Counted from the first letter of the stretch, positions 1 through 34,469 are shown. The stretch is 42,176 bases of DNA from Reclinomonas americana ATCC 50394 (GCA_048213135.1 PS015054.1:443812-485987); one strand, 5' to 3'. A program made the numbers and translations. Notes: generated by a model from the letters alone, not told the origin.

Positions 1-328
<328 letters not shown>

Positions 329-573
329 TCAACGGCACATGATCGCCGCTCTTCCTCTTCTTCTCTCGTGTGCAGAGAACCGCCAAGTGTGTCATCCTTC
401 AGTTGTCAATCGTCGACTTCTCTCGACGTCATTATTTCGACTTCAAACTGTACACTCGTCACCCCCTCTTCTCCTTCCTCAATGTACAAGCTATGTACAG
501 CAGTATGTGTTGGGATATTTTCCGGGAGGAGAGGGGAGGAGACTCACTGACAACCGTGTGCCAGGCGCCCGCA

Positions 574-3422
574 TCACAAGCAGTCAAAGTAAGGTGCAGG
601 TCGGCATGTGGTTCCCGGCGTGCACGTCACTTGCACCGCCCAGCCGCCGTATGTGCACACCGACAAGTTGTTGTCGACGCAGTCCCACGCGCCGCGGTTG
701 ACATTGGGATCGCAGACTGGTTGCCCTGAGCCAGAGCGAGTGACTGCAAGATGGATGGATACATGAGACAACTGCCAGCCGAATTCGAAGAAAGACATGC
801 AGGCTGCGTGCTTATAGTTACCTCCCGCAATCGTAAACAGCTTCTCCGTTTGGAGACCAACTGCATTCGTCGAACGAATGCGTACAGTGAGAGTGGTACG
901 ACTCTCGCCGGCGTTCGCAATGCGCAAACTGTTGCCACTGATGTTGAATGCATCGCCGTTCGTCGATGCGTCGCTGACAATCGTGTAGGTGAACGACGAC
1001 GTGACGGAGGCAGTGGTCGACAGTTGGCCGACCACTGTGTTTGCAGAGGCCGTCGGAGCGGAGAAACTCGTTGCCGACAGCGAAATATTTGTGGGTCCAC
1101 CTGCACGTCATTGGTCAGATATCTCTCTCCCGCCTCTCCGCAGCATCGCTCCAAGAGACACAAACACACCTTGTGCGGTTGAACAAGGGTCGAAGCTGAG
1201 CGCCACCATCTTCCACTGCAGTTGCAAGTAAAGTTGATTTTGCAGCGTGTATGCGCACTGCAGCAAGGTGGTGCCGTTGCACTGCAGAGTGCACGACGTG
1301 GAGCAGCTGTCTCCCGGATTGGGGGCGGACGGTGTGGGGGTCGGTGTGGGCGTAGGAGTCGGCGTCGGTGTGGAGTTCACTGTGCCGATTGCGAAGACAA
1401 CATGAGCTCCATCATCATCCAAGCAGAGTGATGAACACAGCTCACCTCCAGCAATAGTAAACGTCTTCTCAAAGTACTTGCCACCGTTGGCGGCGGCGTC
1501 AGTGCTGCGCACGCGCACCGACAACGACGCCGACGACAGACCGGCCGTGGCGATTTGCAATGTATTGCCGCTCGCGCCGGCAATCTCAAACACATCGCCG
1601 TTCGTGCCACTCGCCGCCACAATGGTGTACGTGAAGGGACCGACGGTATCGGAGGTGGTAGACAGAGAGCCGATCACTTGGTGCGCGGTCGACGGCATCG
1701 AATACTGCCCGTTGCCGGAGAGCATCAGGTCGCTGGGACCGGCGGGTGGGTTGGGAGTCGCGCTGCCGGTGAGGCGATCAGCGACGCCAGCCAGCAGGGC
1801 GACACCATTTGACACTGCGGAGGAGAGGGTGAGCGAGCGGGTGGCAAGCACGGATCTCATTGGCTCTCCAACGACGCAACACTCCCAAATCATTATGCCT
1901 CCGTAGCCATTGGCCTTGACGTAGTCGGCCTTGAGACCCAACGACTGGTCGTCGTCGTACGAGATGAAGATTTGTGCCGACGCACTGTACAAGTATGGCA
2001 CCTGTGCGGCGCTGTCCCAGTACCGCTGGTAGCCATTGATGCCGGCGTTGCTGGTGCCGAGGAACCGGTTCACCACATCATAGTAGAACACGGAGCCACT
2101 GGCGCCGAGTGTGCCAGTGCCCGCATACGAGGCCGGCGAGAACAGGCCATTCTGCGTGGGTCAAACAGACTCAGCGCACGTACAAGCAGAGTGCGACAAG
2201 CAGCGCGCGCGACATACCCGCGTGCCTGCAGAGACGCCGGCGTAGATGTGGCCGTAGAACGCCACACCCGCAGCCAAGCGACCGGCTGGTGCGCCACCGC
2301 TGACGTACGCCTGCAGCGAGGCCACCACGTTGAACTTGCTCTTGGCCGGCTCACTGATTGGCGACGACGGGTCCGCATACAGCGGGGCGTTGTGTCCAGT
2401 GCGCGACAGATCCCAGGTGCCGAAAAAGTCGTAGGCTGTGTTGTGTGTTGGGAATATATCAATGAGCAACTCGAGGGATAAGCAGGAAGATAAGAGAGGG
2501 AGGAGGGAGGTACGAAACCCATCACGTTGACCCAGTCAATGTACTGCAGCATGTTGGCCAGCTGCAGGTTGACGACAGCCGACGGAGCCGCCGGACCGGC
2601 AATGGTGATGAGGCCGTTGGTGAGCCCACGCGCTTGCATCTCCTGCCGCAGCGCTTGCACCAGCAGCACGTAGTTCGCCCCGTCGGACGGCAGGTGCGGA
2701 ATGTTGTTGCCACCCTGCGCAAGCATGAAATGAGCACAGCAAGCAGGAAGACGCGTTTGCTTGGCGGTTCACGTACTTCCACCGGGTACTCCCAGTCCAA
2801 GTCCACGCCATCAAAGGAGTAGTTGACCATAAAGTCCACCGCCGACTGCGAGAGGAGCAAGGCCAGTGAGACAAGGAGGAAAAAACAAGAAACGATCGAG
2901 ACTGTACTGCTCCAACCTTGGCAAACTTGGTGCGGTTGGTGGCCGAGGCGGCGACCGCAGAAAAGTTCGTGGACCACGTCCACCCACCAATGCTAATCGC
3001 CGTGCGCACATTCGGGCAGCGCTGCTTGAGGGCCTTCAGCGCCAGCAGGTTGCCGACACTGCCATCGCGCATTGGCAAGCCCGTGTCGGCCCACGAGTCG
3101 CCCACCAACACCGTTCCGCTGCTGTCCAGGTTGGCAAAGGCAAAGTTGATCACGTCCAAACGAGCGCACATGGCCGCAGTGATGTCGGCAATCTGATAGT
3201 TGCGCTCGTACACGGACCATGACGCCACATACGAAATCACTTTGGTCGTGCAATCACGAAGTCTCTGCGTTGTGTTGTGTGAGTTGTGCACAATGAACAC
3301 AAGTGCGTGTGCATGCACGCAACTACACCGCTTGCACATGCAGCATCCGCGTGACGCGCCTGCACTGCAACCAGCACCACCACGAGGAGAGAAAGAAGCA
3401 AGGAAAATCTCGCACGACACAT
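574..3422 (-). CDS. Secreted GH18 chitinase: signal peptide, GH18, cadherin-like, PT linker, 5-Cys module, cadherin-like, CBM19-like 6-Cys module (about 10 exons)
   Basis: Spliced translation gives hydrophobic leader MCRARFSLLLSLLVVVLVAVQA, then YVASWSVYERNY, NFAFA, SIGGWTWS, intact catalytic FDGVDLDWEYP, NVMAYDFFGTW, FISYDD and GGIMIWELS. The tail ends CDPNVNRGAWDCVDNNLSVCTYGGWAVQVTCTPGTTC...DCL*. Confidence 0.93.
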
Positions 3423-3747
3423 GAGAATGATGATGCGTTGCACGCTGTTTGTGTGTGCGTTTCAAGACTCTCAACACTGTGTGACGGAGATCCCCACGCG
3501 GCCTCACAAAGCACGTTGCGCAAAACAATGCGTCAGTTGCGCGCAACCGACTTAGCCGATTTGAGGTTGCACATTTTTTTATCGTGCCCCTGGGCGCACC
3601 CGCTGCAACCACTTCCGCCACACATCTTTTTTATTCGCTTTCCGTTGTGCAAACGACGCAACTCCCCCCCACCCGCCACCCGTGTATCTGTCGCTGTGTG
3701 TTGTGCGCACAAGTGGTTTGATTTTCCGTTCAAGAACGACAAGGAAG
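3423..3747. promoter_or_regulatory. Putative bidirectional promoter between chitinase and LPMO
   Basis: 325 bp between divergent ATGs (3422 minus, 3748 plus). Contains palindromes TTGCGCAA (3516-3523), GTTGCGCGCAAC (3536-3547) and TTGTGCGCACAA (3701-3712). Confidence 0.55.
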
Positions 3748-6700
3748 ATGCATGCAAAGTCATCTGCTGTGTGGTTCCTGCTGTGTGCGGTGCTGCTGGC
3801 GTGTGTGCCACTGGTCACCGGTCACGCACTTCTGCTTTCTCCTCGTTGCGTTTGTGTGCTGTTGTGATCAATGGGTGATGATAATCTCTTGACACTTTGT
3901 GTGTCCACAGTTGCACGGTCCGGGTGCCCGAGCTGCAACAACTACTGCCCGCACTGTTTGAATGCCGGTGGCCCAGGGTTCCGTCGTTCTTGACTTGTAT
4001 GCTCATGTGTGCGCTGCGCGATTGCTGACTTCCTTTCTGTCACCAGACAAGTGTCGGCATTCACTCCTGGCAACCATGCGTGGCCGGCGGTGGAGACGGC
4101 GACGACTGCGGTGCGCCGTGGTCTGTGCGGTGGCAATCCGGATGGCACCGGCTTGCAGTTTCTGACACCGGGGCCGCTGGCGGCCTCGTATGCCGCTGGA
4201 CAGGTCATTAACATGACTGTGCGTGTGACGGCGCATCACAAGTTGAGTGCGTTGCGGTCAGTGATGACTACGTTGGCGCCCTCCGAGAACTCACGCTTCC
4301 CCCATTGCTTTGGTGTCGATCCGCAGAGGTCACATGGAGGTGAGATATCAGCGGCCGCTGAGCAGTCACTTTAGTGTTTCTCGATCACTCACTCATGTGT
4401 GCAGGTCCGCCTGTGCGAGAACGCCCAAGCGTTGACTCAAGATTGCTTGAACGCCCACGTGCTTCAGCGTGTGGACACCACGTATTCACCGATTGATGCC
4501 GCGTATCCCGGTCGCTGGTACTTGCCACCGAATGGCATTGGCGACTACCCGATGCAGTATCGCTTGCCGGCCGGTGTCACGTGCAACAACTGCGTGCTGC
4601 AGGTAACGAGCCTCCACTGCGTCGTGGGGATCGCTGCCGTTGTCTCATTTGTGTTGACAGTGGTGGTACGTCACTGGCAACTCCTGCTCTGCTCCCGGGT
4701 ACGGCACCTATGCCTTCCCCAGTTCATCGTGGTGGAGTCCTGGAGTCGGCACGTGTGGTGTCAATGCGCCCTACCCCGAAGAGTTGCGCCATGTCGTCAG
4801 AAAATAACAGAGCACTGATGCCACCATCGCTGCTGACACCTCCCCCAGGTTTTGGAACTGCGCCGACATATCCATCACCGCTGATGGCTCGTCGCCGACA
4901 CCAACTCCGACGCCCACGCCCACGCCGACCCCGACGCCAACGCCTACGCCTGCGGCGCCAAACGTCGGCGACGTGTGCCCCGACAGTTGCGACATGACTT
5001 GCAACGGCTCATCGCTGCTGCAGTGCGAGTATGTGTCCACTGGTGCGTCGGCTCTCGGGCGCAAGTGGGCCCTGTTGGCCTCCAACTGGCCGGCGTGTTC
5101 ATTCGGCAACACACCAGGTTTGCTGCGCTTGCTTTTCCCCTCGATGCCCTGTATTCGTGTACGATATCCTGACTGTGATGACTGTGGCCCCAGCGGGTCC
5201 CACGGACATTTCACTGAGCGCATCGTCGTACCAGTCACCGTCGGTGGCCAACCAGACTGTCGGAACCCTCGCAGCCACATCGGACACCACTGGTCCGTTC
5301 ACCTTCTCGATTGTGAGCGACACGGCAACGAATGGGACGCAGTTTGCGATTGCCAACGGCAACGTGCTGCAAATCACGACGGCCGGACTGACGTCCGCGC
5401 TGTCGGTACGCGTGCGAGTGACCGACGCGGCGGCAAACGGTGGCAAGTCGTTTGACAAGCTTTTCTCAATCTCGGCTGGTGAGTGAGTGGGTGGTTGGGT
5501 GCAGTGTGATGATGATCAGTGCCTGAATATTGTGTGTCGTACAGTTGCACCACCAGCGACAGGCCCCACCAACATCACACTGAGCGCCTCGTCTTACCAG
5601 TCGCCGTCGGTGGCCAACCAGACTGTGGGAACCCTCACAACCACATCGGACACCACCGGTCCGTTCACCTTCTCGATCGTGAGCGACACGGCAACGAATG
5701 GGACGCAGTTTGCGATTGCCAATGGCAACATGCTGCAAATCAAGACGGCCGGACTGACATCCGCACTGTCGGTGCGCGTGCGAGTAACCGACGCGGCGGT
5801 AAATGGTGGCAAGTCGTTTGAGAAGGTGTTCTCGATCTCGGCTGGTGAGTGAGTGGGTGGTTGGGTGCAGTGTGGTGATGAGCAGTGGCTGAATAGTGTG
5901 TGCCGCACAGTTGCACCACCGCCGACAGGTCCGACCAACATCACACTGAGTGCTTCGTCGTATCAGTCGCCGTCGGTGGCCAACCAGACCGTGGGAACCC
6001 TCACGGCCACATCGGACACCACCGGTCCATTCACCTTCTCGATCGTGAGCGACACAGCAACGAATGGGACGCAGTTTGCGATTGCCAATGGCAACGTGCT
6101 GCAAATCAAGACGGCAGGACTGACATCTGCACTGTCGGTGCGCGTGCGTGTTACGGACGCAGCGGCAAATGGTGGCAAGTCGTTTGAGAAGGTGTTCTCA
6201 ATCTCGGCTGGTGAGTGAGTGGGTGGTTGGGTGGTTGCAGTGTGGTGACGATGCATGGCTCAATTCTGTACGCTGCTGCAGTCGCACCACCACCGACACC
6301 AAAAGGTCCGACGAACATCACACTGAGCGCCTCGTCGTATCAGTCGCCGTCGGTGGCCAACCAGACTGTGGGAACCCTCACGGTCACATCGGACACCACC
6401 GGTCCGTTCACCTTCTCGATCGTGAGCGACACGGCAACGAATGGGACGCAGTTTGCGATTGCCAATGGCAACGTGCTGCAAATCAAGACGGCAGGACTGA
6501 CATCCGCACTGTCGGTGCGCGTGCGCGTTACGGACGCGGCGGTAAATGGTGGCAAGTCGTTTGACAAGGTGTTCTCGATCACGGCTGGTGAGTGGGTGTT
6601 GCAACGTTGTGAGTATGAGAGTGTGTGTGGATGCTTACGGATCGGAACAGTCTCTTCCCCGACGTGCAACCCGTCGGTGAACCGCGGAGCCTGGGCTTGC

Positions 6701-6811
6701 ATCGGCAACAATCTTTCTACGTGCGACTGGACCGGATGGGTAGTCATCCAGAAGTGCACGGCCACCCAGGTGTGCCAGGCATCGCCGGCCACGGGCTACT
6801 ATTGCAAGTGA
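3748..6811 (+). CDS. Secreted AA15 lytic polysaccharide monooxygenase: signal peptide, AA15, PT linker, 5-Cys module, 4 cadherin-like repeats, CBM19-like 6-Cys module
   Basis: A 25-aa signal peptide ending VTG is followed directly by His (codon 3823-3825). Spliced product reads HALLLSPLAR, CPHCLNAGGP, GLCG, TAHHKGHMEVRLC, QYRLPAGVTCNNCVLQWWYVTGNSC and PEEFWNCADISI, all typical AA15 motifs. Confidence 0.9.
5194..6587 (+). repeat. Four near-identical tandem exon+intron units encoding cadherin-like domains
   Basis: Exons 5194-5478, 5545-5844, 5911-6210 and 6282-6587. Donors at 5479, 5845, 6211 and 6588 give spacings of 366, 366 and 377 bp. The first three introns start gtgagtgagtgggtggttgggtg, and all introns are phase 1. 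Confidence 0.97.
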
Positions 6812-6988
6812 TATTTTGCTCTCTTTCTCTCGCTGTACATACTTGTAAAAAATGGTGTACATTTGTCAAGTCGATGTACTGCTCGTCTCCTCTGCGGACT
6901 CCTTTCCACGACAGCGCGACAACTCGACTTGCAACAAAGCTTCGAGACAATTGCAAAAGCGGACACGGGACAAATAACGTTCGAAAAA

Positions 6989-9900
6989 ATGACTGAGCGA
7001 TGGGAACAGCGACGACTCGAGCTGTTGCGTCACACACACCCTCTCTCTCTCTCTCTCTCACATATACACACGCATGCTGACAATCTGCTTTGCGTGCGTC
7101 AGCGATCACCGATTGGACGCACTGCGGCGACGAACAGGCGGGTTGGTCGACAGCGGCGATGTGGGTGTCAGCGGCAGTCGGCTTGCGGTGCGTCGCGCTG
7201 AGCGAGCGCGGCTGGAGCTGAACGAACTGAACAAGGAGAATGCGGAGGCGGCCGCACGCAATCAGCGATTGCTGAGCGTGTTTGGAGATCTGGTCAAGCA
7301 CTTGTCGCAGATGCAGGCGCCGGCCACAGAGGCCGCGCAGCAGCTTCGTGCGGAGAAGGTGCGTTGCAGGACACTGCTGGTGTGGGGAGAGAGAGATAAG
7401 TGCTGAATGCGATGGGAGCAGGAAAAGTACTATTCTCATGTGATGGAACAACTGCCGGAGTGGCGTCGGCGACGTGATGCTGTGCGCAGTCGCGATGTGC
7501 AACGCATGGAGCAGGAGATTGTGCGTATGGAGGAGGAGCGGGCACGATTGCAGCGGGAGTTTGAGAATGAGCAGCTGGCACATGGAGTGTATTTGCGCAA
7601 GAGCATCGAACATCAGCAGACCAAGGAGCGACTGATGATGGAGGCGGAGCGGATGAAGGCGGAGCGAGAGCAGCGGGAACGCGAGGGTGAGATAATCTAG
7701 AGTGAGGCGGCCTCGGTTTGAGAGATCCTCATTGTGTGTCGACAGAGGCCGAACTGCAGCTGATTGTGCAAGAGGCTGCGCGATTGGAGAAGGAACGCTT
7801 CCGGCAGCAGTCGCAGACGGCAGTAGCCGAGGTCGCTCGTCGACAGTACTTGGACGTCAAGGGTAACGTGCTGCACTCGAACGCGTCGCATCAGCATCGA
7901 AGCTGACGCAAGTGTCTCGTGTCTTTTTTCTTTTCAGCTCAACTGCTCGAGCAAGCTGCCACCGGTTCCATCGACTTTTCTTCGACAGCAACCTCACAGC
8001 AGTCACTGCCGCGCACGGAACTGGTGCGGGAACCACTGACTACGCTCTACAGTTCCGGCTCTAGTGCGAATGCGGCGGCAGCCGGCGCCAGTTCCACGCT
8101 TACGCCGTTGCGGCTGTCGTCCAACCTCCTGCAACTGCGCGCAGCACCTGTGCCGCTCTCAGCTTCTACGCTCACCGCAATGTCGCTGGAGGCCGATACT
8201 GTGGAGCACGTTGTGAATTCAATGACAAAAGACCAGTTGCGTGCAAAGCGCTTCACTTGCAGCATTCCCCATCGTGCCTCACCGCGATCCGCCAGAATTC
8301 TTGCCGTGTTTATCGCTCTGGTGGCTGAGCTGGAGATGATTGACGCGCACGTGATGGTGAGCGTGTCTCGCGCTTGTCGGAAAGAGCTCCACTTGCCTGA
8401 CTTACAATCGCTTTGTGATTGATTTCAGTGTCCATACGCGTCCATGGATGCGACCATGTCGTTTGCACCCACCGGTGTCGAGAGTGCATCGCGTGTTGCA
8501 CTGCTGAGGCATGTACTGAGTGGAGCCAGTGCGGCACAGCTGCCTGTCGGCGAGCGTGCGCAATCGGTGCTGGATCTGGTGCATTTTTATCCGCAAGGTA
8601 CTGCCTGAACTCATGCTTCTTCTCCCAGTCGATAATGACACCAGCTGTCCACAGGTCTCGCTTCGCTCTCGTTTATTCAGGATTGCCTTATTACCACCAC
8701 TCGCTACACGCTCGACATGATCGATAAGCACTTTTTCGGCAGCACCCGAGGTTGGCACTTCATCCATGCCCTTTCGCTCTCTCTCTCGTCTCACAAGTGC
8801 GACACGCAGAAATATGGATACGCATGGTGCGTCACTTGCAGGTGGTCGTCACGCGGTATCCGCAAGAAAAGTACACGGTGCTGCAAGCGTTTGCATCGGC
8901 CCTGGTTCCACCCGGCGAGACCGTACATGCCTTTTCCATGTCGCGCAAGGTCTGCTGATCGCCCGTCCTGTGGCTGTCGTCGCAGTCAATTCTCACTGTG
9001 TGTGTGTGTGTGTGCGCGTGGGATCACAGATATTGCAGTTCCTGGAAGCGCTGGTTCGCCAGTCTCGTATCTCCGAGACGTACGCGCTGACGCGATCGAC
9101 TGAGCGGCTAATGGCGGCGGAGAGTGACGCGCTGCACCCGGTCACCGCTGTCACACCGACGGTGGCTGCTGCCTCAACACCGGTGGGTGTCGCCAATCCC
9201 GCTACTGCGGCGGCTTCGCATGCACAGAAGCCACCATTGGGCGCGACAGCCCCGCCTTCCAAGCTGCTGCCTCTGCATCTGATTGCACAGTCGACCGCCA
9301 CTGCAGTCTCGCAGCCGTCGCCGCCGGCCACCACCGGTGTTCCGAGCATGAGCATTTCGAGTCCGCCCACCGATCTCGACAACGGCGCCAATGAACGAGT
9401 AGCACGTGAGCAGGCCGCTTTGGCGGAGCGGCAACGCCTGGTGGCGCGCCAGGCAGAAGCCTTGCTGCAGATGCAACGCGAGCTCCAGGAGCAGGAGGAG
9501 CGAGCAAAGGCCGTACAGGAGGAGGAAGCTGCAAGGCGGCGGCAGGAGGCCGAAGCAGCAGCCGCAGCAGCCAAACAGCGACAGTTGGAAATGGAAAGAG
9601 CGGTGGCCGAGGCGGCGGCGATGGAAGTCAGAAGGCGGCAGCAGCAGCAGCAGCAGGAGCAGCAAGAGGCCGAACAGAAGGCTGCACAAGAGCGTCAGCG
9701 CAAGCTGGAGCAGGAGCAAGCAGAACAGCGCCGACTGGAGCAGGAACGTGCAGCGGCGGCTGCAGCTGCTGCATCTCAGAAAGTGGCACCTGTTGTTGTC
9801 GCTGCGGGAAGAACGGAACGAACTGTGCCAGTGGCATCGGTTGCCTCCCCGCCACGTGCCGGAAGCGCTGTGGCCATTGACGACATTCCGGCTGGCGTTA

Positions 9901-11894
9901 CCGCACGACGAGCGTCACTCTCCAATACTGCGCCCGCCGTCGGACTTGTGCCGGGTGTGGTCGGCTTCCTCGAGGAGGAGAACGACGAAGTGAACACTGA
10001 CGAGGACATGACGGGCACGGCGCTCTCGTCAGAGGCCAGCCAGCCTGCGACCATGCCTGTCAATGTTGGCAGTCTGCCAGGATTCCGCTCCACAGGTTCC
10101 TTCGCCCTCGCTGCCGTTTGCTCGGTGCATCCGTGTTTCTCATTTTTTGGTTGCAGGTGGCGCACCGCCCACCATGGTGGTGACTCCACCAGGCTGGGGA
10201 AGTGGCGACACGGAAGGTGGCGTGGCCGACCTATCCTCCATTACCTACAACAATGGAGAGGATCGAGCCAAGTTGCGTGTACCTCCCTGTCCAGTGCGCT
10301 CGCGGCACGCTTTTCTCACTGGACGATGTGTCGATGGCAGCGCGTCGCACGTGTCGTCGTTTGCGTTTACGGAGGAGAGCACCATTGATGCGCACCCCTC
10401 TCTCGGCACGGACACAGGTGCCGCAGCCGGCAGTTCCACCGCTGGCGCAGGGTCGACTGCGGCCGCGCCCGGCGGCAGTTCCGGGCCATCACGACCGGGG
10501 TCAGCAAGCGGCCGCTCACAACCACCACGAAGCAAATTGGAGCGCGAGTTGCAGAGGCGCGAAGAGAAGGAACGCGAGCGCAGTTACGTCGGCGCGCTTC
10601 AGCGTGAAAGAAAGCTGTGTGGCAAGTGAGGCTAAATCTCAAGCATGCAGAGCTGGCTGAGCAACGACAACGTGAACTGGAGGAGCAGACGGACAGGCAG
10701 CGACAGCAAGCAGAAAAAGAGGAACGGCAGCGACAGGAGGAGCGTGAACGGCAACGACTGAAAGAGGAACGAGAGCGCCAAGAGCGGATAAGACGACAGG
10801 CCGAAGAAGAGGCGGAGCGGCGGAAACAGGCGGAGGCTGCGGAGCGCGAGGTCCGAATCGCCATTCATGCGTTTGTGTGGCGACCGAGAGTCTCACCCTC
10901 CATTCTTTCATGCAGCGGGAGGAGCGCGAACGCGAAAGGCGTCGCAAGGAGGAGCAAGAGGCGGAGGAGAAGAGGAAACGGGCCGAGGCAGAGCGTCTGC
11001 AGGTGTGTATTGTTTGTGTGTCTCTGTCTTTCTTTGCGATTATTGTTGTTGTTTTTGATTGCTCGGTTCATCGTCTCCAGCGAGAGGAAGAAGCGAGGGC
11101 ACGACGATTACGAGAGGCAGAAGAGGAGCAGCGACGCCGTGAGCGCGAAGCCGAAGAGCAGCGATTGGTTTGTGTGCTGCGTGACTGTGTCTCGTGGGCT
11201 TTGCAAGTCGCCTGCTCTAATTACCATTGATGCGTGCGCAGCAAGAGGAGCGTGCGGCACAGGAAGCCGCAGAACGAAAGCAGAAACTGGCGGAGAAGGC
11301 GCGGCAGGCACAGCGCGAGGCCGATGAGCGTGCTGCTGAGGAGCAGCGGCGGCGCGAAGAAATGCGCAAGAGTGGCATCTTGGAGAAGAAGAAGGTGCTG
11401 TTGACGGGCACATCACCGCAGCCCGTGCGTGCCTCCGGCGCGTCGTCTAGCAGTGCAACCAGTCAGCGGTCGACCAGCAACAGTGGCCGCAAGGTCAGCC
11501 AGCGCAGCGCGCACCGCCGTATGTAGTGTGTGTGACTGACAGTTTTTGGCGGTGCACACAGGTCTCCAACAGTGACATTCGTGAGGCGGCTGCACTTGCG
11601 GCGGCCAGCTCGTCTCGTGGGTCTTCTGTGTTCAGCAAATACGGTCGCCGGCCGACGTCGTCGACAACGAGAGCCACGGGGGGTGGTGGTGGTGCTGCGA
11701 GGTCGGTATCTTGTCACACCACGAAATGTGCATTCCGCCCCACTCTCATTTTTTCACATGCTGTGTGCAGTCGACGACCCTCGGTGCTTGCCAACGACAG
11801 CACGGAGAGTGATGCCACCGGCGGCGACGCTCACTCGCATTCGACCATGCAGTCGGGCGCCACCGATTTCTCGGCGGATGAGTTTGACTTTTGA
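6989..11894 (+). CDS. Kizuna-like centrosomal coiled-coil protein (multi-exon)
   Basis: N-terminus MTERWEQRRLELDHRL...AAARNQRLLSVF...QQLRAEKEKY resembles, from memory, the Kizuna N-terminal coiled coil. A central helical block reads EIWIRMVRHLQVV...LQAFASALVP...KILQFLEALVRQS, followed by long E/R/Q-rich coils and an acidic end SADEFDF*. Exon structure near 8580-8680 is uncertain. Confidence 0.55.
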
Positions 11895-12004
11895 GTGGAA
11901 CCAAAATTGTGTGTCTTTAATATTGCGGTGTTAAACAGGGTGGATAATACAAACTACAACAGCAACAATAGGGAAAATAACGCTTCTATGTTGAAACAGA
12001 CAGA

Positions 12005-15000
12005 TTACAAGCGAGCCGAGTCGGCTGGAGGGAAATAGATCATGGGAGAGAACGTGACATGCTCGGTGTCGTCGTCCATCGGCGGCGCAGTGGGTGCCAG
12101 CTGACGAGGATACAGGCGCGGACTAATGAGTTGCGTGGGACTGGGAGAGCGTGTGCGCGACTTGCTCGGCGAGGTGGACTCTGGTCGTGCACCGGCAACG
12201 GCTGGCACAGCCAAATGCGACCGCGGTGCAAAGGGAGGCGACGACGCTGCAGACGACAGCGACGATAGGGAAGGCGGCGGCCGTGTCGGGGATGCCGTGG
12301 TTCCGTTCGCATTTTGCTTGGCAGCATCGATTACGGTCGGCGCGCTCTCGCCGCTTTGCGACTGCACGAAACGAATGAGTGATACTGGCAAACATCCACT
12401 GCCATTGCACTACGTTGCATACCTGCGTGGCCGACGACGATTTCCCAGCCGGAGCACCTGGCATGTGCGGCGACTCGGACCCTCGAGAGCTACCGGTGCC
12501 TCGGGCAGCCAAGACCGCCGCAGCGGCCAGGCCCGGCAGAACGACCGGTGGCTTGCGTTCTTCGGGGGCGGTCGACGGACGCTTCTTGGGCGACAAGCCA
12601 GCCGTGACACCGGGACTTGCGTTCACTGCAAAGGGACGATAAGAGTGAGCAAGTGGCCAGTGCGTGCAAGATGTCGTGTAGCTACTGACAACGCACTTCG
12701 ATACTGCAGCAACAGGCCGATGCTCTGCACCGGTGACGCCGAGGCCGATCCGTGCGAATACTGCAGCGAATCGGCGTCGTCATCGTCACCGTCCTGCGTG
12801 GCCACCGACACATTGTCGCCGGACGATGTCGTAGTGGTGCCGGCTGACAGAGAACCGCGAGGCACCACCGGCACCGGGGCGGGCGACTGGGAATGAGCGG
12901 CAGGCTTGCCACCGCTGCCACCGACCCTTTCGGGGTGGCGCACTCGCGGTTGCGCGCTTAGTGGCCGATTGGCCGCAAACAGCAACGATGGCACGTGCAC
13001 CTCGCCACCTGGACGAGCACCACCTGACGACACATCATTCAGTGAGATAGTCTCGCAGTCGCACGCAATTGACACATCACATCACACAGACGCACCTGGC
13101 GAGCGAGTGGGCGGGGCAGTGGTTGGGCGGCGTCGCGAGGATCCGGAGCCGTTGCCAGCGTCTGGCACGGTGGTGATTTCTTCGCGTCCCTCCACCGACA
13201 CGGTGGTGGGAGACGAGCCTCCGTGACTTCCGGCGTCGTCGTGCACGTTGCTTGACGTGTCGATCGACTGTCCGCGTGAGCCGCTGCCGGCGGGCGGTGG
13301 CAGTGCACGCAATCGAGAATACTGTCGGACTCACACGTGTCAGGCACGGGAGAGGGAGCGAGGGAGAGGAAGTGGCATATTGCAAGCGGACGCAACAGAA
13401 ATGTCGGGCACCGCAGTGCCGCCGGCGACGGAGCCAATGAGCAAGCCGTGAAGTCGCTCCATGTCAAGCTCGCGTCGCGGCGTGCGCGGAGTGCGCGGTG
13501 TCTCCAGTGGCGTGGAGACGGCGGAAACCTCCGAGTCACCACCGTGGTCGGCCGCCCCAGTGGCACCCGACCCAGCCACACCCAGCCGATCCCACGTCGA
13601 CGACGCAGCCACCACCGGCAGTCCGTCTATGAGCGACGAGCGTCCGGCCACAGCGGCAATAACAGCCTCGTTGGCGGGACCCGCGGTGGCGCCACTCAGA
13701 ATAGCAGCGGCAGTGAGGCCTCCAGCAGCACCCGAGTTGATACCGCGACTCGTGGAGAGCAGAACACGGGAGAGACCACGTGCGTTTCCTTCCTCCATCA
13801 GACTCGACGGCGCCATTTCGGCCAAGTCGCCGGCGATCCGCGACACGAGATGCACGCGACGCACAAACTCGGCTGCAACTCGTGTGAGCACAATGGCCAG
13901 CGGAACACACAACACAGACACACGTCTATCAAGTCTGGCACGCAACTGGCGACAGCATCGTCAGCCTCGACCGGTGTCACCATGCAGGCGGGCGGATCTG
14001 CGAGCCACGTGAGAGACATGCTACACGATGCATGTTCCAATGGAGGGGGACACAAACACGTACCGCGCGTTGTTGCGACACAGCGGCGATAGTTTTGCAG
14101 AGAGCGCATGCGCACATTGGCCAGTGGGGCCAGCCGGTGACGATGGCGGTACTCCCAATACGCATCGGAAATCACCCGCACAGCATGCTTGTGGCGCGTG
14201 TGCACCTCCACGGTGTGCGTCAGCAGCACATCGAGTTCGCCCAGTTGAGCGTCCAGTCGCTTGTGCAACATGACACCTTCGCGAACCATGCGTTCCACAA
14301 ACATGATTTGGCGGACGTGCTGCTGGATCACTGCGGCGGCTCGATGGCGGCGGCCAAGATGGCTGCGGTACTGCCGCTGAATCGCACGTGCCGCAGTAGA
14401 ACGGCGCAGCTCGCCCAGCTGTTGTGTGTTGTAGACAGTGGTGAGTTGCCGACGCGAGTGATGAGTGCACACAAGCCAAGAGCAGAGAGACGCACCCGAG
14501 AATCGCGTGCACGGTGTTGTCGATCGAGGTGGTGACGGAAGCTGCGCTGGATGCTGGTGGCAGCCTCGTTACGCATGGCGTGGTGCCCTGTTCGCACACA
14601 GGTGGGTAGCCTGTCGGAGAGAAGACAATACACAAGAAGCGCGGCAAACGCACCACGCCAAGTCGTCTGGATGACACGCGCGGCGGCATGCTGCACACGT
14701 CGGTCGCCGAGTGTCCGCAGGAAGCGTCGAATGTTGCGCTGCAGCAGCGAGGCAGCAGCCCTCGATCGCACAAAGCGCTTCCTTTCCACGTAGGCTGTCG
14801 CATTTGCTCGATGAGCACAACACGCACCACTGTCGCAAACACAAACAAGCTGCTGCAAACCTCGTGCTTGATGCTGAATCACACGCGCTGCGGCCGTCCA
14901 CTCATCGAACAACTCGTCGCTCGGGTACCGCGCGCATTCTCGTGGCAGCGAGAAACGCGGGTGGTGTGCCGACTACAGTACCGGTGATGAGTCCAACTGC

Positions 15001-31886: not shown

Positions 31887-34469
31887 TCATTGTGGTGGCG
31901 ATGAGGTCCGTGAGACGCTGGGAGTCGAGTCTCGCCTCCTGGCGTCGAGGAGTTCTTGCAGGCGTGCGGCGATGATGTCCACGGCGCCAGGCTGCAGGTT
32001 GTGTCTGAGGAGAGGGGGAGAGAAAGAGTGGAGATTTTGTTGAATTTCGATATCGATGTGGGGGGAGGCATTCGCACTCAAACACTCACCTGTCGACAAA
32101 CTGGCAAGCCAGCGCCAGTGGGGCATCGCCGTCACGATAAATATCTCGCATCACACCGTCGGTCACCTTGACGCTGAGGACGACGCGAACGTTGCAGTCA
32201 TCCAGTGGTTGCCACGACGATGCGCTGCATTATAAGACCGTTAACCCGATGGCCAGCTTCCATCCAACATGTGTTTCTCTCTCCAGTTCAATGTCTGCAT
32301 TTGAAAATAAATGTGCCATCAAATTCGCAGCCGCGTACGGCTGAAATCCACGTATTACAAAAATCCCTGTCCTCCGCGGCGATGCGGCTTGCCAGCGCGT
32401 GCAATATGACCATCCTCGTCGACACCTTTGCTCTATAAATGCTATGTCGCTCACAGAGAGCCGCATCAGCGACTACGCGCGCAATGTCATCCGCAGCCTC
32501 GGCACCCATCAGCTGAGCATCATCCGCCACGCCCTCCACTGTGGGCATGACTTCCAGGAGCATGTGGCCCACGCTTCGTCCGCCGTTGAGGGCCACCGCA
32601 AAGTCAGTCGCCCTCGGTCGCGCCGCCGGATCCGCCGACCAACCGCGCCCAATCACGTCACACACAGCAGTCGGAACGCCAACAGCTTCCAGCTCGGCGA
32701 GATCCGGCCGCTCACCACCAATCGTGAACCGTCGCATGATCTGGGCGTCCTTCATGCCGGCAAATACGCGACGCAGCGACAGCAACTCGAACAGGATGAA
32801 CGACAGAGCGTACACATCCGCTGCGGCTGTCGGCTGACCACCTTCTGCCACCTCTGGCGCATCGTATCCGGACCGTGCGGCGGTCCCCGACTGAGTGCGG
32901 AGCAAGAACGATACTCCAATGTCCGAAATGCAGGCCCGGAGGGACGGCCGGGGGTCCGCACCGCGAGGTGCAACGACTTCCAGCCACGGTAGATCAATTG
33001 CAGCAGCTGCTGCGGCGGAGGCCTCCTCGAGCTCTGGAGAAGCAATGGTGGACGTGGACTGCAGCATGATGTTGTCCGGCTTGAGGTCCCGGTGGATCAC
33101 ACCAGCGGTGTGAATTTCGCAGACACCGCGCACAATGTCTCGTGCCAGCCACAAGCGATCGTCAACGTCGAGTGCCACCAGCTCGCGCGATGACTCAGAA
33201 ATGGCTTTCGCGAGTGAGCCGGGCCCCTCCACGAACTCCATGACGATAGCCAAGCCACGATCTCCCAATCGGACACCACCATGCACCGGCACAATCGTCG
33301 GAATCGCCGCGAACGGCCGGGCCACGGCAATCTCGTGCATGAGGGCGGATTCCGCAGCACTTCCTCGAGCAATGGGAACTCGTGGTGCCTTGATGGCAAA
33401 CGTGAACGACTCCGTGGGGATCTTGAACAGGTCGCAGTGAGCACCAGCAGCCACCGGCCGTACATCGTCTGACATCACCACCTCCGCCTGCAACGGCTCG
33501 GGAATACAATAGGTTTCGAGGTCGTCATGCAGTGCACGAAGCCGCGCCAGCACAGCAGCCGAGGGCACCGGCGGCTGCGCTTGTGGCGCCATGGGCGTGC
33601 GGCACTGTGGGCAGTCACGATGTCCGGTGGTCAGCATCCGCGTCACACAGGCGCAACAGATGACGTGCCGGTCGGACGCTGGACAGGGCGCTATGGGCGC
33701 ATGTGGGTGGCCTTCGTCGATGCCAAATCGCTCCATGCAGCTCGGACAACGCATCTCGTGCCAGGCCAGCAGAGCACTGATGGTGACGACGGCGCACGTA
33801 TCCGGTCGACGGCGATGCTGCACAAGAAACCGGGGCAGTACACGTTTCAGTGGAAGCACCACACTAAGTTCGTCGCTCCGCTTGCTGGACAACAAGAGAC
33901 GAGTCAGAGTGCGCAGCACCTGGCACGACTCTCGCGAGGTGAGCTGCGTGGTGAAACGGCGAATGTCGCTCGACAGTCTGTACCATTCACGCACAAACAA
34001 GACGTCCTCAAGTGTAGCGATGCACGTGGCAAGGTATCGTGCTCCGTACGACACACACCCCGGGCAGTACGTATTTGGTCCGTAACCGAGTCGAAGTATC
34101 AAATGCAATGTCGATCCGTCGCGGATCTTGTAGTCGCGCAGTGTGCGGTCGTTGACCAGCTGCTTGCCGTTAAACCAAAGGTGTAATCGATCATGCGGGA
34201 CGTCCAGCTGGTCGTCAATCAGCCGCTTGAGCGCGAAAACCGTGTCGTCGCGATCAATGTCCACCGGGATGCTATTGCCAGTGAGTGTTTTGGCAAAGAT
34301 CTGTGTGTGTGTGTGTGTGAGTGAGAGAGAGAGAGAGAGGAAAGGGGGCGAGAGAGTGAGAGAATGTGAGAGAGAAAAAGAGAGAGAGAGAGAGAGTTGA
34401 GAGAGTGTGAGTGTGAGAATGCTGGTGAGTTGAGTGTGTGTTGTGTGGAATGCACGGGCTCACCTGCAT
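31887..34469 (-). CDS. Ubiquitin-like domain, RING finger, TKL-type protein kinase, and C-terminal PFU-like domain
   Basis: MQ|IFAKTLTGNSIPVDIDRDDTVFALKRLI...GKQLVNDRTLRDYKIRDGSTLHLILRL; RING CPSC...C..HVICCAC...CPQCR; kinase FAIK, HRDLKPDNIML, DIG, DAPE, DVYALSFILFELL. Two 44-nt introns and one further intron extend the frame to DGDAPLALACQFVDRHNLQPGAVDIIAARLQELL...Q* at 31887. The 3' exons are less certain. Confidence 0.82.

Follow-up and report, generated by a model that had tools for sequence, protein, structure and literature searches.

Do two neighbouring genes of a eukaryote encode a chitinase and a lytic polysaccharide monooxygenase (LPMO) that are directed together to chitin? The question is raised by a stretch of 42,176 nucleotides from Reclinomonas americana ATCC 50394 (GCA_048213135.1 PS015054.1:443812-485987), here called the window, in which two genes lie head to head on opposite strands within positions 574-6811 (counted from the first letter of the window). 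One encodes a chitinase of family GH18 (gene A) and the other a predicted LPMO of family AA15 (gene B), and both end in the same ordered set of small modules. The pairing of an LPMO with a chitinase is a central idea of enzymatic chitin breakdown. We propose that the two products are secreted as a pair and directed to chitin by a tail that both share and that arose by exon shuffling, a reading to which we give a probability of about 0.6. Both modular enzymes would most likely act on one insoluble substrate, chitin, on which the common tail would dock them; the LPMO would nick crystalline chains oxidatively, and the GH18 enzyme would then hydrolyse the loosened chains. Chitin binding by the tail, synergy of the enzymes and any shared regulation are the parts of this proposal that we infer.

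A GH18 chitinase and a predicted AA15 LPMO

The two genes were modelled by hand with GT-AG splicing. Gene A runs on the minus strand from 3422 down to 574 (9 exons, 763 amino acids, stop codon at 574-576) and gene B on the plus strand at 3748-6811 (12 exons, 770 amino acids, stop codon at 6809-6811), and each of the 19 introns is GT-AG and 58-85 nt long. The start codons (ATG at 3422, minus, and ATG at 3748, plus) are separated by a spacer of 325 bp (3423-3747), which holds both 5' untranslated regions and any shared promoter. The coordinates and the divergent 325-bp gap given in the original prediction, made from the sequence alone, are therefore exact, and its two secreted enzymes correspond to real genes, with signal-peptide-like N-termini on both proteins.

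The models are predictions based on reading frames, splice consensus and homology. The region 574-6811, with a G+C content of about 54-60%, has no long frames of bacterial type and shows many frame pieces between short GT-AG gaps. Support for the models comes from the four repeat exons of gene B, where 104 of the 135 nucleotide differences affect the third base of a codon; from the alignment of the spliced LPMO domain over its exon junctions with an intronless homologue (L003, see below); and from the chosen donor of intron 1, which leaves an even number of Cys (12) in the catalytic domain of gene B. The other intron-1 donor (..SPRCVFARSG..) would bring a 13th Cys into this domain and an insertion with respect to L003, and it is considered less likely. 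Five short genomic contigs (1919-2221 and 5383-6080) read unspliced across introns 5 and 8.

Gene A bears out the earlier assignment of one enzyme to GH18. Its exon 1 (3327..3422, minus) carries the start codon and a hydrophobic, signal-peptide-like N-terminus (MCRARFSLLLSLLVVVLVAVQA.., read directly), and the catalytic domain, identified by Pfam and PDB matches, takes up parts of exons 2-6 (1741..3264, minus, introns 2-5 included). Pfam Glyco_hydro_18 (PF00704) matches four exon pieces, all above the cut-off of 29.6 bits (70.9, 30.7, 40.8 and 51.1 bits; E 2e-19 to 3.4e-07), and the pieces cover profile positions 2-314 of 317. In the spliced model the catalytic motif FDGVDLDWEYP, read directly in exon 3 (2777-2845, minus), is intact, with the acid Glu of DxxDxDxE, the defining mark of GH18. 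Among solved structures, the closest relatives are chitinases of bacteria and fungi (1itx_A, E 1.3e-19; 5gzu_A, E 2.8e-26).

For gene B, profile and PDB comparisons were made exon by exon and through homologues. The signal peptide (3748-3822, plus) and the AA15-like LPMO domain together span 3748..4876 (plus, exons 1-7 in part), with His26, His119 and Phe232 as the residues of interest. The leader is hydrophobic and ends in ..CVPLVTG, followed by HALLLSP.., and cleavage of the signal peptide would free His26 as the predicted N-terminal residue; HALLLSP.. aligns with ..SVHS/HGCMVHP.. of L003, the slash marking the equivalent boundary. Searched against PDB, exon 5 matched the Thermobia AA15 structure 5msz with E 2.8e-5, the other three of the four rows returned at E<=10 having E>=0.23. 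Among 177,635 PDB sequences 5msz was the only credible match of exon 5, of L003 (E 7.3e-10) and of L001 (E 1.7e-4), and no AA10 entry was found; exon 3 gave nothing credible in the PDB sequence search. A word-index protein search with exon 5, in the 'longer' length class, returned nothing at E<=0.01, a blank that is weak evidence.

The homologues came from a metagenome scan, which returned six loci. An intronless open reading frame (ORF) of L003, at 9398-10780, encodes a signal peptide, LPMO_10, a linker and a carbohydrate-binding module (CBM) of family CBM1. It matches LPMO_10 over the full length of the profile (39.8 bits against a cut-off of 23, positions 1-183 of 183), with 5msz as its sole PDB match. 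The spliced gene B domain aligned with this ORF over the whole length at 82.2 bits, and with L001, L002 and L004 at 72.7, 71.1 and 43.2 bits. L003 itself (155-13193, on a metagenomic contig of 14.5 kb) is a tandem of four LPMO copies in 13.5 kb, none by a GH18 gene and none with the tail described here; at least one copy is ordered signal peptide, LPMO_10, linker and CBM1, and the last consists of three frame pieces (introns or frameshifts).

Through these homologues the residues of the predicted copper site could be aligned. The second His lies in TAHH119KGHMEVRLC of gene B, which corresponds to TTNHNGWFEFIIC in L003 and to QAPH91IGFFEFRLC in 5msz, with an Ala two residues earlier. This alignment depends on a micro-exon of 13 nt (4327..4339, plus; part of ..HHK-GHME-VRLC..), inferred from frame and homology and flanked by introns of 85 and 65 nt. 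The micro-exon keeps the frame and the motif conserved after the second His, it aligns with TNHNGWFEFIIC of L003 and APHIGFFEFRLC of 5msz, and its residues would directly follow the copper-binding second His. At the axial position, EEF232WNCADISI of gene B aligns with EEFWNCADVAV of L001 and EEY184RNCADIAI of 5msz. In TdAA15A (5msz) the copper is held by His1 and His91, with Ala89 near the copper site and Tyr184 in the axial position, and Phe is the usual axial residue in chitin-active AA10s and is also that of the chitin-specific TdAA15B (Sabbadin et al. 2018, PMC5823890). Because His26, His119 and Phe232 align with 5msz via the homologues, the product of gene B is predicted to have every sequence mark of an AA15-type LPMO, and its axial Phe, shared with TdAA15B, would lean to chitin. 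The AA15 assignment of the original prediction is upheld by the same alignments and by 5msz being the sole credible PDB match. TdAA15A is the only solved sequence relative, with the equivalents of His1 and His91, the Ala and EE[Y/F]xNCADI kept; the Thermobia enzymes, in contrast, consist of a catalytic domain only, whereas gene B has a tail of about 530 residues, and the identity is low, with phmmer aligning parts only.

Tails homologous down to intron position and phase

Behind the catalytic domains, both proteins continue into a modular tail. In gene A, the GH18 domain is joined within exon 6 to a first cadherin-like domain (1447..1740, minus), and after a phase-1 intron come exon 7 with the Pro/Thr linker and the 5-Cys module (1170..1379, minus), exon 8 with the second cadherin-like domain (822..1100, minus) and exon 9 with the terminal 6-Cys module and the stop codon (574..743, minus), exons 7 and 8 being of phase 1-1. 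In gene B, the Pro/Thr linker (about 4877-4954, plus) and the 5-Cys module (4955-5117, plus) lie in exon 7, the latter at its end; exons 8-11, each of phase 1-1, encode four tandem cadherin-like domains (5194..6587, plus), and exon 12 encodes the terminal 6-Cys module and the stop codon (6651..6811, plus). The order is the same in the two tails, the chitinase having one cadherin-like domain at the matching place and an extra one between GH18 and the linker. The ordered tail that had been claimed for both enzymes was recovered, and the peptides quoted for the 5-Cys and terminal modules are present letter for letter; the pre-linker domain of the chitinase had been overlooked. The tails would thus be built from symmetrical phase-1 exons, with cadherin-like beta-sandwich domains as putative spacers, two in the chitinase and four, probably recent, tandem copies in the LPMO.

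All introns of the tails (6-8 in gene A, 7-11 in gene B) are in phase 1. At the boundaries between the 5-Cys module and the cadherin-like domain and between the cadherin-like domain and the 6-Cys module, the split codon sits at the matching aligned position in both genes, before GPT.. and after ..F[TS]I[AT][GA], and here the claim of phase-1 introns at matching module boundaries proved right in phase as well as in aligned codon. Between the two proteins, the 5-Cys modules are identical at 21 of 53 positions (z 17.0), the 6-Cys modules at 24 of 51 (z 16.6) and the cadherin-like domains at between 45 of 90 and 58 of 94 (z 19.6-34.4), with the observed score reached by 0 of the 500 shuffles made for each comparison. 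The 5-Cys and the 6-Cys modules are not alike by alignment (z 0.8-0.9). The homology of the tails extends to the position and phase of their introns. With split codons at matching aligned positions and every tail intron in phase 1, the tail exons and their boundaries alike have a common ancestry, as is classically seen after exon duplication and shuffling.

The history of the tail appears to be less direct than the copying of one cassette from one catalytic domain to the other, as had been proposed. Identity between the tails of genes A and B is only 40-62%, so any transfer would be old. In addition, the cadherin-like repeats of the LPMO are nearer to the pre-linker copy of the chitinase (58 of 94), outside the supposed cassette, than to the copy between the Cys modules (45 of 90), therefore suggesting a history older and more complex than a single block transfer. 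Within gene B, Tandem Repeats Finder described a unit of 366 bp (exon plus intron) in 3.8 copies with 90% matches (5196-6598); any two of the four repeats agree at 85-91 of 94 residues, and the sequence of intron 8 matches that of intron 9 at 60 of 66 bases. These values point to a recent or homogenised tandem array.

Chitin, other substrates and the meaning of the adjacency

Several observations weigh against a pair directed to chitin. The chief evidence against a chitin role is that the nearest LPMO relatives within reach (L001, L002 and L003) are aimed, if anything, at cellulose: they carry the cellulose-type CBM1, without these tails and with no GH18 beside them, and in L001 and L002 CBM1 is accompanied by a concanavalin-like region. 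Exon 5 alone scored 18.1 bits on Pfam LPMO_10, under the cut-off of 23, and the splice sites, those of the micro-exon included, draw their support from frame, consensus and homology only. The 5-Cys and 6-Cys modules have no relative in Pfam, among the PDB sequences or in a large protein database. Only two of the five AlphaFold models of the 6-Cys module are confident, Foldseek found no match for it at E<=1e-3, and its best fold match is an unrelated archaeal fusexin (Z 4.4, weak). Finally, the 325-bp head-to-head gap is ordinary spacing in this compact window. Since genes are tightly spaced throughout (about 320 bp from the stop of gene A to the putative ATG of its neighbour and 178 bp from the stop of gene B to the next ATG), the gap is by itself no sign of a shared promoter, and it lends no support to the co-regulation assumed in the original prediction.

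This spacing bears on whether the adjacency means anything at all. The tail could be a common kit on many secreted proteins of the organism, brought onto two neighbours by local duplication and exon shuffling, with no shared promoter and no dedicated partnership; gaps of about 320, 325 and 178 bp in a compact window tell little, and a tail identity of 40-62% with repeat relationships unlike one block copy would fit such an origin. The spacer contains a perfect 12-base palindrome, GTTGCGCGCAAC, at 3536-3547, with a near copy 21 bp upstream at 3515-3526, and several short GTTGCRC-like repeats and palindromes that carry no statistical weight. Nor is the spacer motif GTTGYGCAA significantly enriched, as it occurs four times in the window (twice in the spacer) and four occurrences were reached by 10 of 100 shuffles. 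In the Saprolegniales, the comparable X474 module is also found on peptidases (PMC8393829). An incidental neighbourhood is however at odds with the fact that the remaining 35 kb of the window contain no further copy of any tail module, of GH18 or of LPMO (best other match E 0.016 over 17 residues), and with the known synergy of LPMO and GH18 activities on one substrate (PMC10154629). Taken together, we regard it as unlikely, if far from negligible, and favour the chitin-directed pair.

What the tail modules are matters most for the proposed targeting. The cadherin-like repeat had no direct Pfam match (only Big_7, E 0.91), and its profile matched, among 1.84 billion representatives, 2378 proteins at E<=1e-3, 1035 at E<=1e-10 and 278 at E<=1e-30. 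All seven proteins scanned with Pfam among the 150 listed matches are Pfam Cadherin proteins, one of them with Por_Secre_tail, and in the protein P0068 the matched stretch (307-402) coincides with that of Pfam Cadherin (316-399). This exhaustive HMMER search, whose profile joined the cadherin-like repeat to the 6-Cys module, was overrun by cadherins with many repeats; the 150 matches listed all lie within profile positions 1-116, so that the 6-Cys part was barely probed, and among them no 5-Cys, 6-Cys, GH18 or LPMO match was present at E<=10. A bacterial origin of the GH18-cadherin unit was considered separately; a pattern scan with exon 6 confirmed no relative in 185,579 prokaryote genomes, and the idea was dropped for want of support, without being refuted.

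The 6-Cys module has about 45 residues from its first to its last Cys, with Cys spacings of 10, 7, 10, 5 and 7-9. For the Cys modules, Pfam gave no family at E<=1 or E<=10, their profiles gave chance rows only against PDB sequences (best E for the 6-Cys module 0.36), and the word-index search with both alignments, in the 'longer' length class, gave nothing at E<=0.01, a blank again of little evidential weight. The ESM Atlas gave top scores of 0.84 for the 6-Cys and 0.80 for the 5-Cys module, below the level taken as meaningful; the nearest neighbours of the 5-Cys module (4955-5116, plus) and of the 6-Cys module (577-741, minus) there are the same two Myxococcota clusters, at 0.76-0.84.

The best AlphaFold2 model of the 6-Cys module has a predicted local distance difference test score (pLDDT) of 89.8 (the five models: 89.8, 83.6, 54.7, 50.9 and 46.3). 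A full structural scan with the 6-Cys model found 15 of 48,161 chains at Z>=2, and six of these 15 are CBM14-type chitin binders: Der p 23 (Z 3.6, root-mean-square deviation (rmsd) 3.7, 45 residues), Avr4 in the entries 6bn0 (Z 3.1, rmsd 3.4, 50 residues) and 4z4a (Z 3.0, rmsd 3.0, 46 residues), Blo t 12 (Z 2.6, rmsd 3.3, 44 residues), Der f 23 (Z 2.4, rmsd 2.6, 31 residues) and the CBM14 of chitotriosidase (Z 2.3, rmsd 3.5, 45 residues). The mite allergens in this list belong to the CBM14 type. Because the Z values are low (2.3-3.6), the likeness, which the model weakly suggests, is a lead and no classification. With CBM14/peritrophin-A modules such as those of Avr4, chitotriosidase, Der p 23 and Blo t 12 the 6-Cys module would share the build of a small six-Cys beta module with conserved aromatics, whereas it differs in having no Pfam or PDB sequence match to them. 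The consensus Cys spacing of CBM14 also differs from the spacing found here. CBM14 is already known on AA15s (PMC5823890, PMC10154629). For the 5-Cys module, the model (pLDDT 77.4) gave Z 2.0-3.3 to small cystine-knot peptides (knottin-type toxins, PAFC and tachystatin B), values too weak for its fold to be named.

These results, together with the CBM1 of the nearest LPMO relatives, allow another substrate to be considered, in which the LPMO would cleave cellulose or another glycan and the tail would be a general cadherin-like anchor or adhesion device and not one for binding chitin. Cellulose is, besides chitin, a substrate of TdAA15A (PMC5823890), the relatives of the repeat are giant multi-repeat, probably surface proteins, one with Por_Secre_tail, and the CBM14 likeness of the 6-Cys module is weak. 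It is hard to reconcile with the same tail being on a GH18 chitinase, with an axial Phe as in chitin-active LPMOs and with chitin binders accounting for six of the 15 chains whose fold matches the terminal module; we judge this alternative improbable, and chitin the better candidate.

If chitin is the substrate, it need not be foreign. Neither protein has a hydrophobic stretch at its C-terminus, so that both would be secreted in free form and could remain in a wall, and the pair may remodel a chitin-containing wall of the organism itself during division, hatching or cyst formation. Some AA15-bearing protist groups have chitinous walls. Insects use AA15 enzymes on their own chitin (PMC9156745, PMC5823890), and members of the family are present in protist groups (PMC5823890). 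In contrast, there was no sign of chitin making in the window, where few ORFs were scanned and no chitin synthase was seen, and the shared-tail enzymes of oomycetes have been proposed as virulence factors acting on host chitin (PMC8393829). A role on the organism's own wall, rather than in an attack on foreign chitin, is a fair possibility, if less likely than not.

The two enzymes may also be joined physically. The 5-Cys module has five Cys, an odd number conserved in both proteins, its neighbours are free of Cys, and therefore one thiol would be left for an interchain bond; by such a disulfide the chitinase and the LPMO may join after secretion into a two-enzyme complex working like AA-GH18 fusions. 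In complex prediction the 5-Cys/5-Cys pair scored 0.56, the best of three controls scoring 0.03, which is weak support; contact agreement of the runs was at least 94% and partner pLDDT at least 82. Of 78 solved complexes, 51 attained the mark for the complex score, as did 2 of 108 mismatched pairs; passes at 0.60 or below came from only 5 of the 78 solved complexes and from all four passing mismatches (of 180). A pass of this kind is more often wrong than right, and homo-pairing is indistinguishable from hetero-pairing. We regard a disulfide-linked complex, suggested by modelling, as very unlikely.

Known systems and the surroundings of the pair

The original prediction knew of no description of such an arrangement, a claim that can be kept in part only. 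In Aphanomyces astaci, 16 of 31 AA15s end in short Cys-rich modules, X473 with six Cys and X474 with four; apart from this, the modules belong typically to GH18 and GH19 chitinases, and they occur in Saprolegniales only; AaAA15A oxidises chitin and is chitin-specific (Sabbadin et al. 2021, PMC8393829). AA15 occurs in oomycetes, several algal groups and Ichthyosporea; about one third of its members are extended at the C-terminus, in most cases by a CBM (CBM1 and CBM14 are named), and in some members the fusion partner is GH18 or GH19 (Sabbadin et al. 2018, PMC5823890). Intramolecular synergy has been shown for Jd1381, an AA10-CBM5-GH18 protein (PMC10154629). Since Cys-rich modules are common to the AA15s and the GH18/GH19 enzymes of Saprolegniales, the principle of placing the same binding tail on an LPMO and on a chitinase is already known in a eukaryote.

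The likeness to the Saprolegniales is close, as in both cases secreted AA15s and chitinases of one eukaryote carry a shared short Cys-rich C-terminal module behind a linker, there a proposed chitin binder. The tail described here is however much longer and ordered (5-Cys, cadherin-like, 6-Cys), it is built of phase-1 exons, and the genes are head-to-head neighbours. X473 has six conserved Cys in fewer than 40 residues and the 6-Cys module has them in about 45, the two being compared by description only. With the AA15-GH18/GH19 fusions and Jd1381 the locus would share the coupling of LPMO and GH18 onto one chitin surface, whereas here the polypeptides and genes are separate and the coupling would be the common tail, perhaps with a common promoter. 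In Serratia marcescens, chiB and cbp21 are neighbouring genes for a GH18 enzyme and a chitin-active LPMO that act in synergy; that pair, unlike the present one, is bacterial, has an AA10 instead of an AA15 enzyme, is intronless and has no shared modular tail. What looks new here is which modules make up the tail and how long it is, its construction from phase-1 exons and the direct head-to-head position of the genes. A head-to-head GH18/AA15 pair of a eukaryote was not found in the literature, in a search too limited to prove absence, and the word cadherin has no occurrence in the LPMO-CBM review PMC10154629, which leaves a cadherin-like spacer array unmentioned there.

Current views are not overturned by this locus. 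Bacteria and oomycetes direct the two kinds of enzyme to one surface by giving both the same binding module, and the locus appears to follow that logic in another eukaryote by way of phase-1 exon shuffling. The two Cys-rich modules, which have no detectable sequence relatives, are candidate new chitin-binding modules; if they bind chitin, they would represent new CBM families and handy fusion tags, and if the genes are co-induced, they would offer a compact model of a eukaryotic bidirectional enzyme pair.

The genes around the pair are housekeeping genes, encoding a translation GTPase, a ubiquitin-kinase fusion and a p24-family protein (about 28 kb). The start of the translation-GTPase gene lies at 1-330 (minus; Pfam GTP_EFTU, E 2.6e-08), and its first exon is basic and resembles a targeting peptide. 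At 13.8-18.3 kb (minus) there are long Arg/Gln-repeat frames that resemble runs of IQ-type motifs, a piece of which (13801-14568) gave no Pfam match. Runs of N, which cause the G+C dips at 40-42 kb, stand amid long CT/GA and CA/GT simple repeats at about 31.1-31.4, 37.5, 39.8-40.5 and 40.8-41.3 kb, with proline-rich frames adjoining. A single long frame at 32288-34456 (minus) combines a ubiquitin domain (E 8e-19) with a protein kinase (E 1.2e-18), an uncommon pairing.

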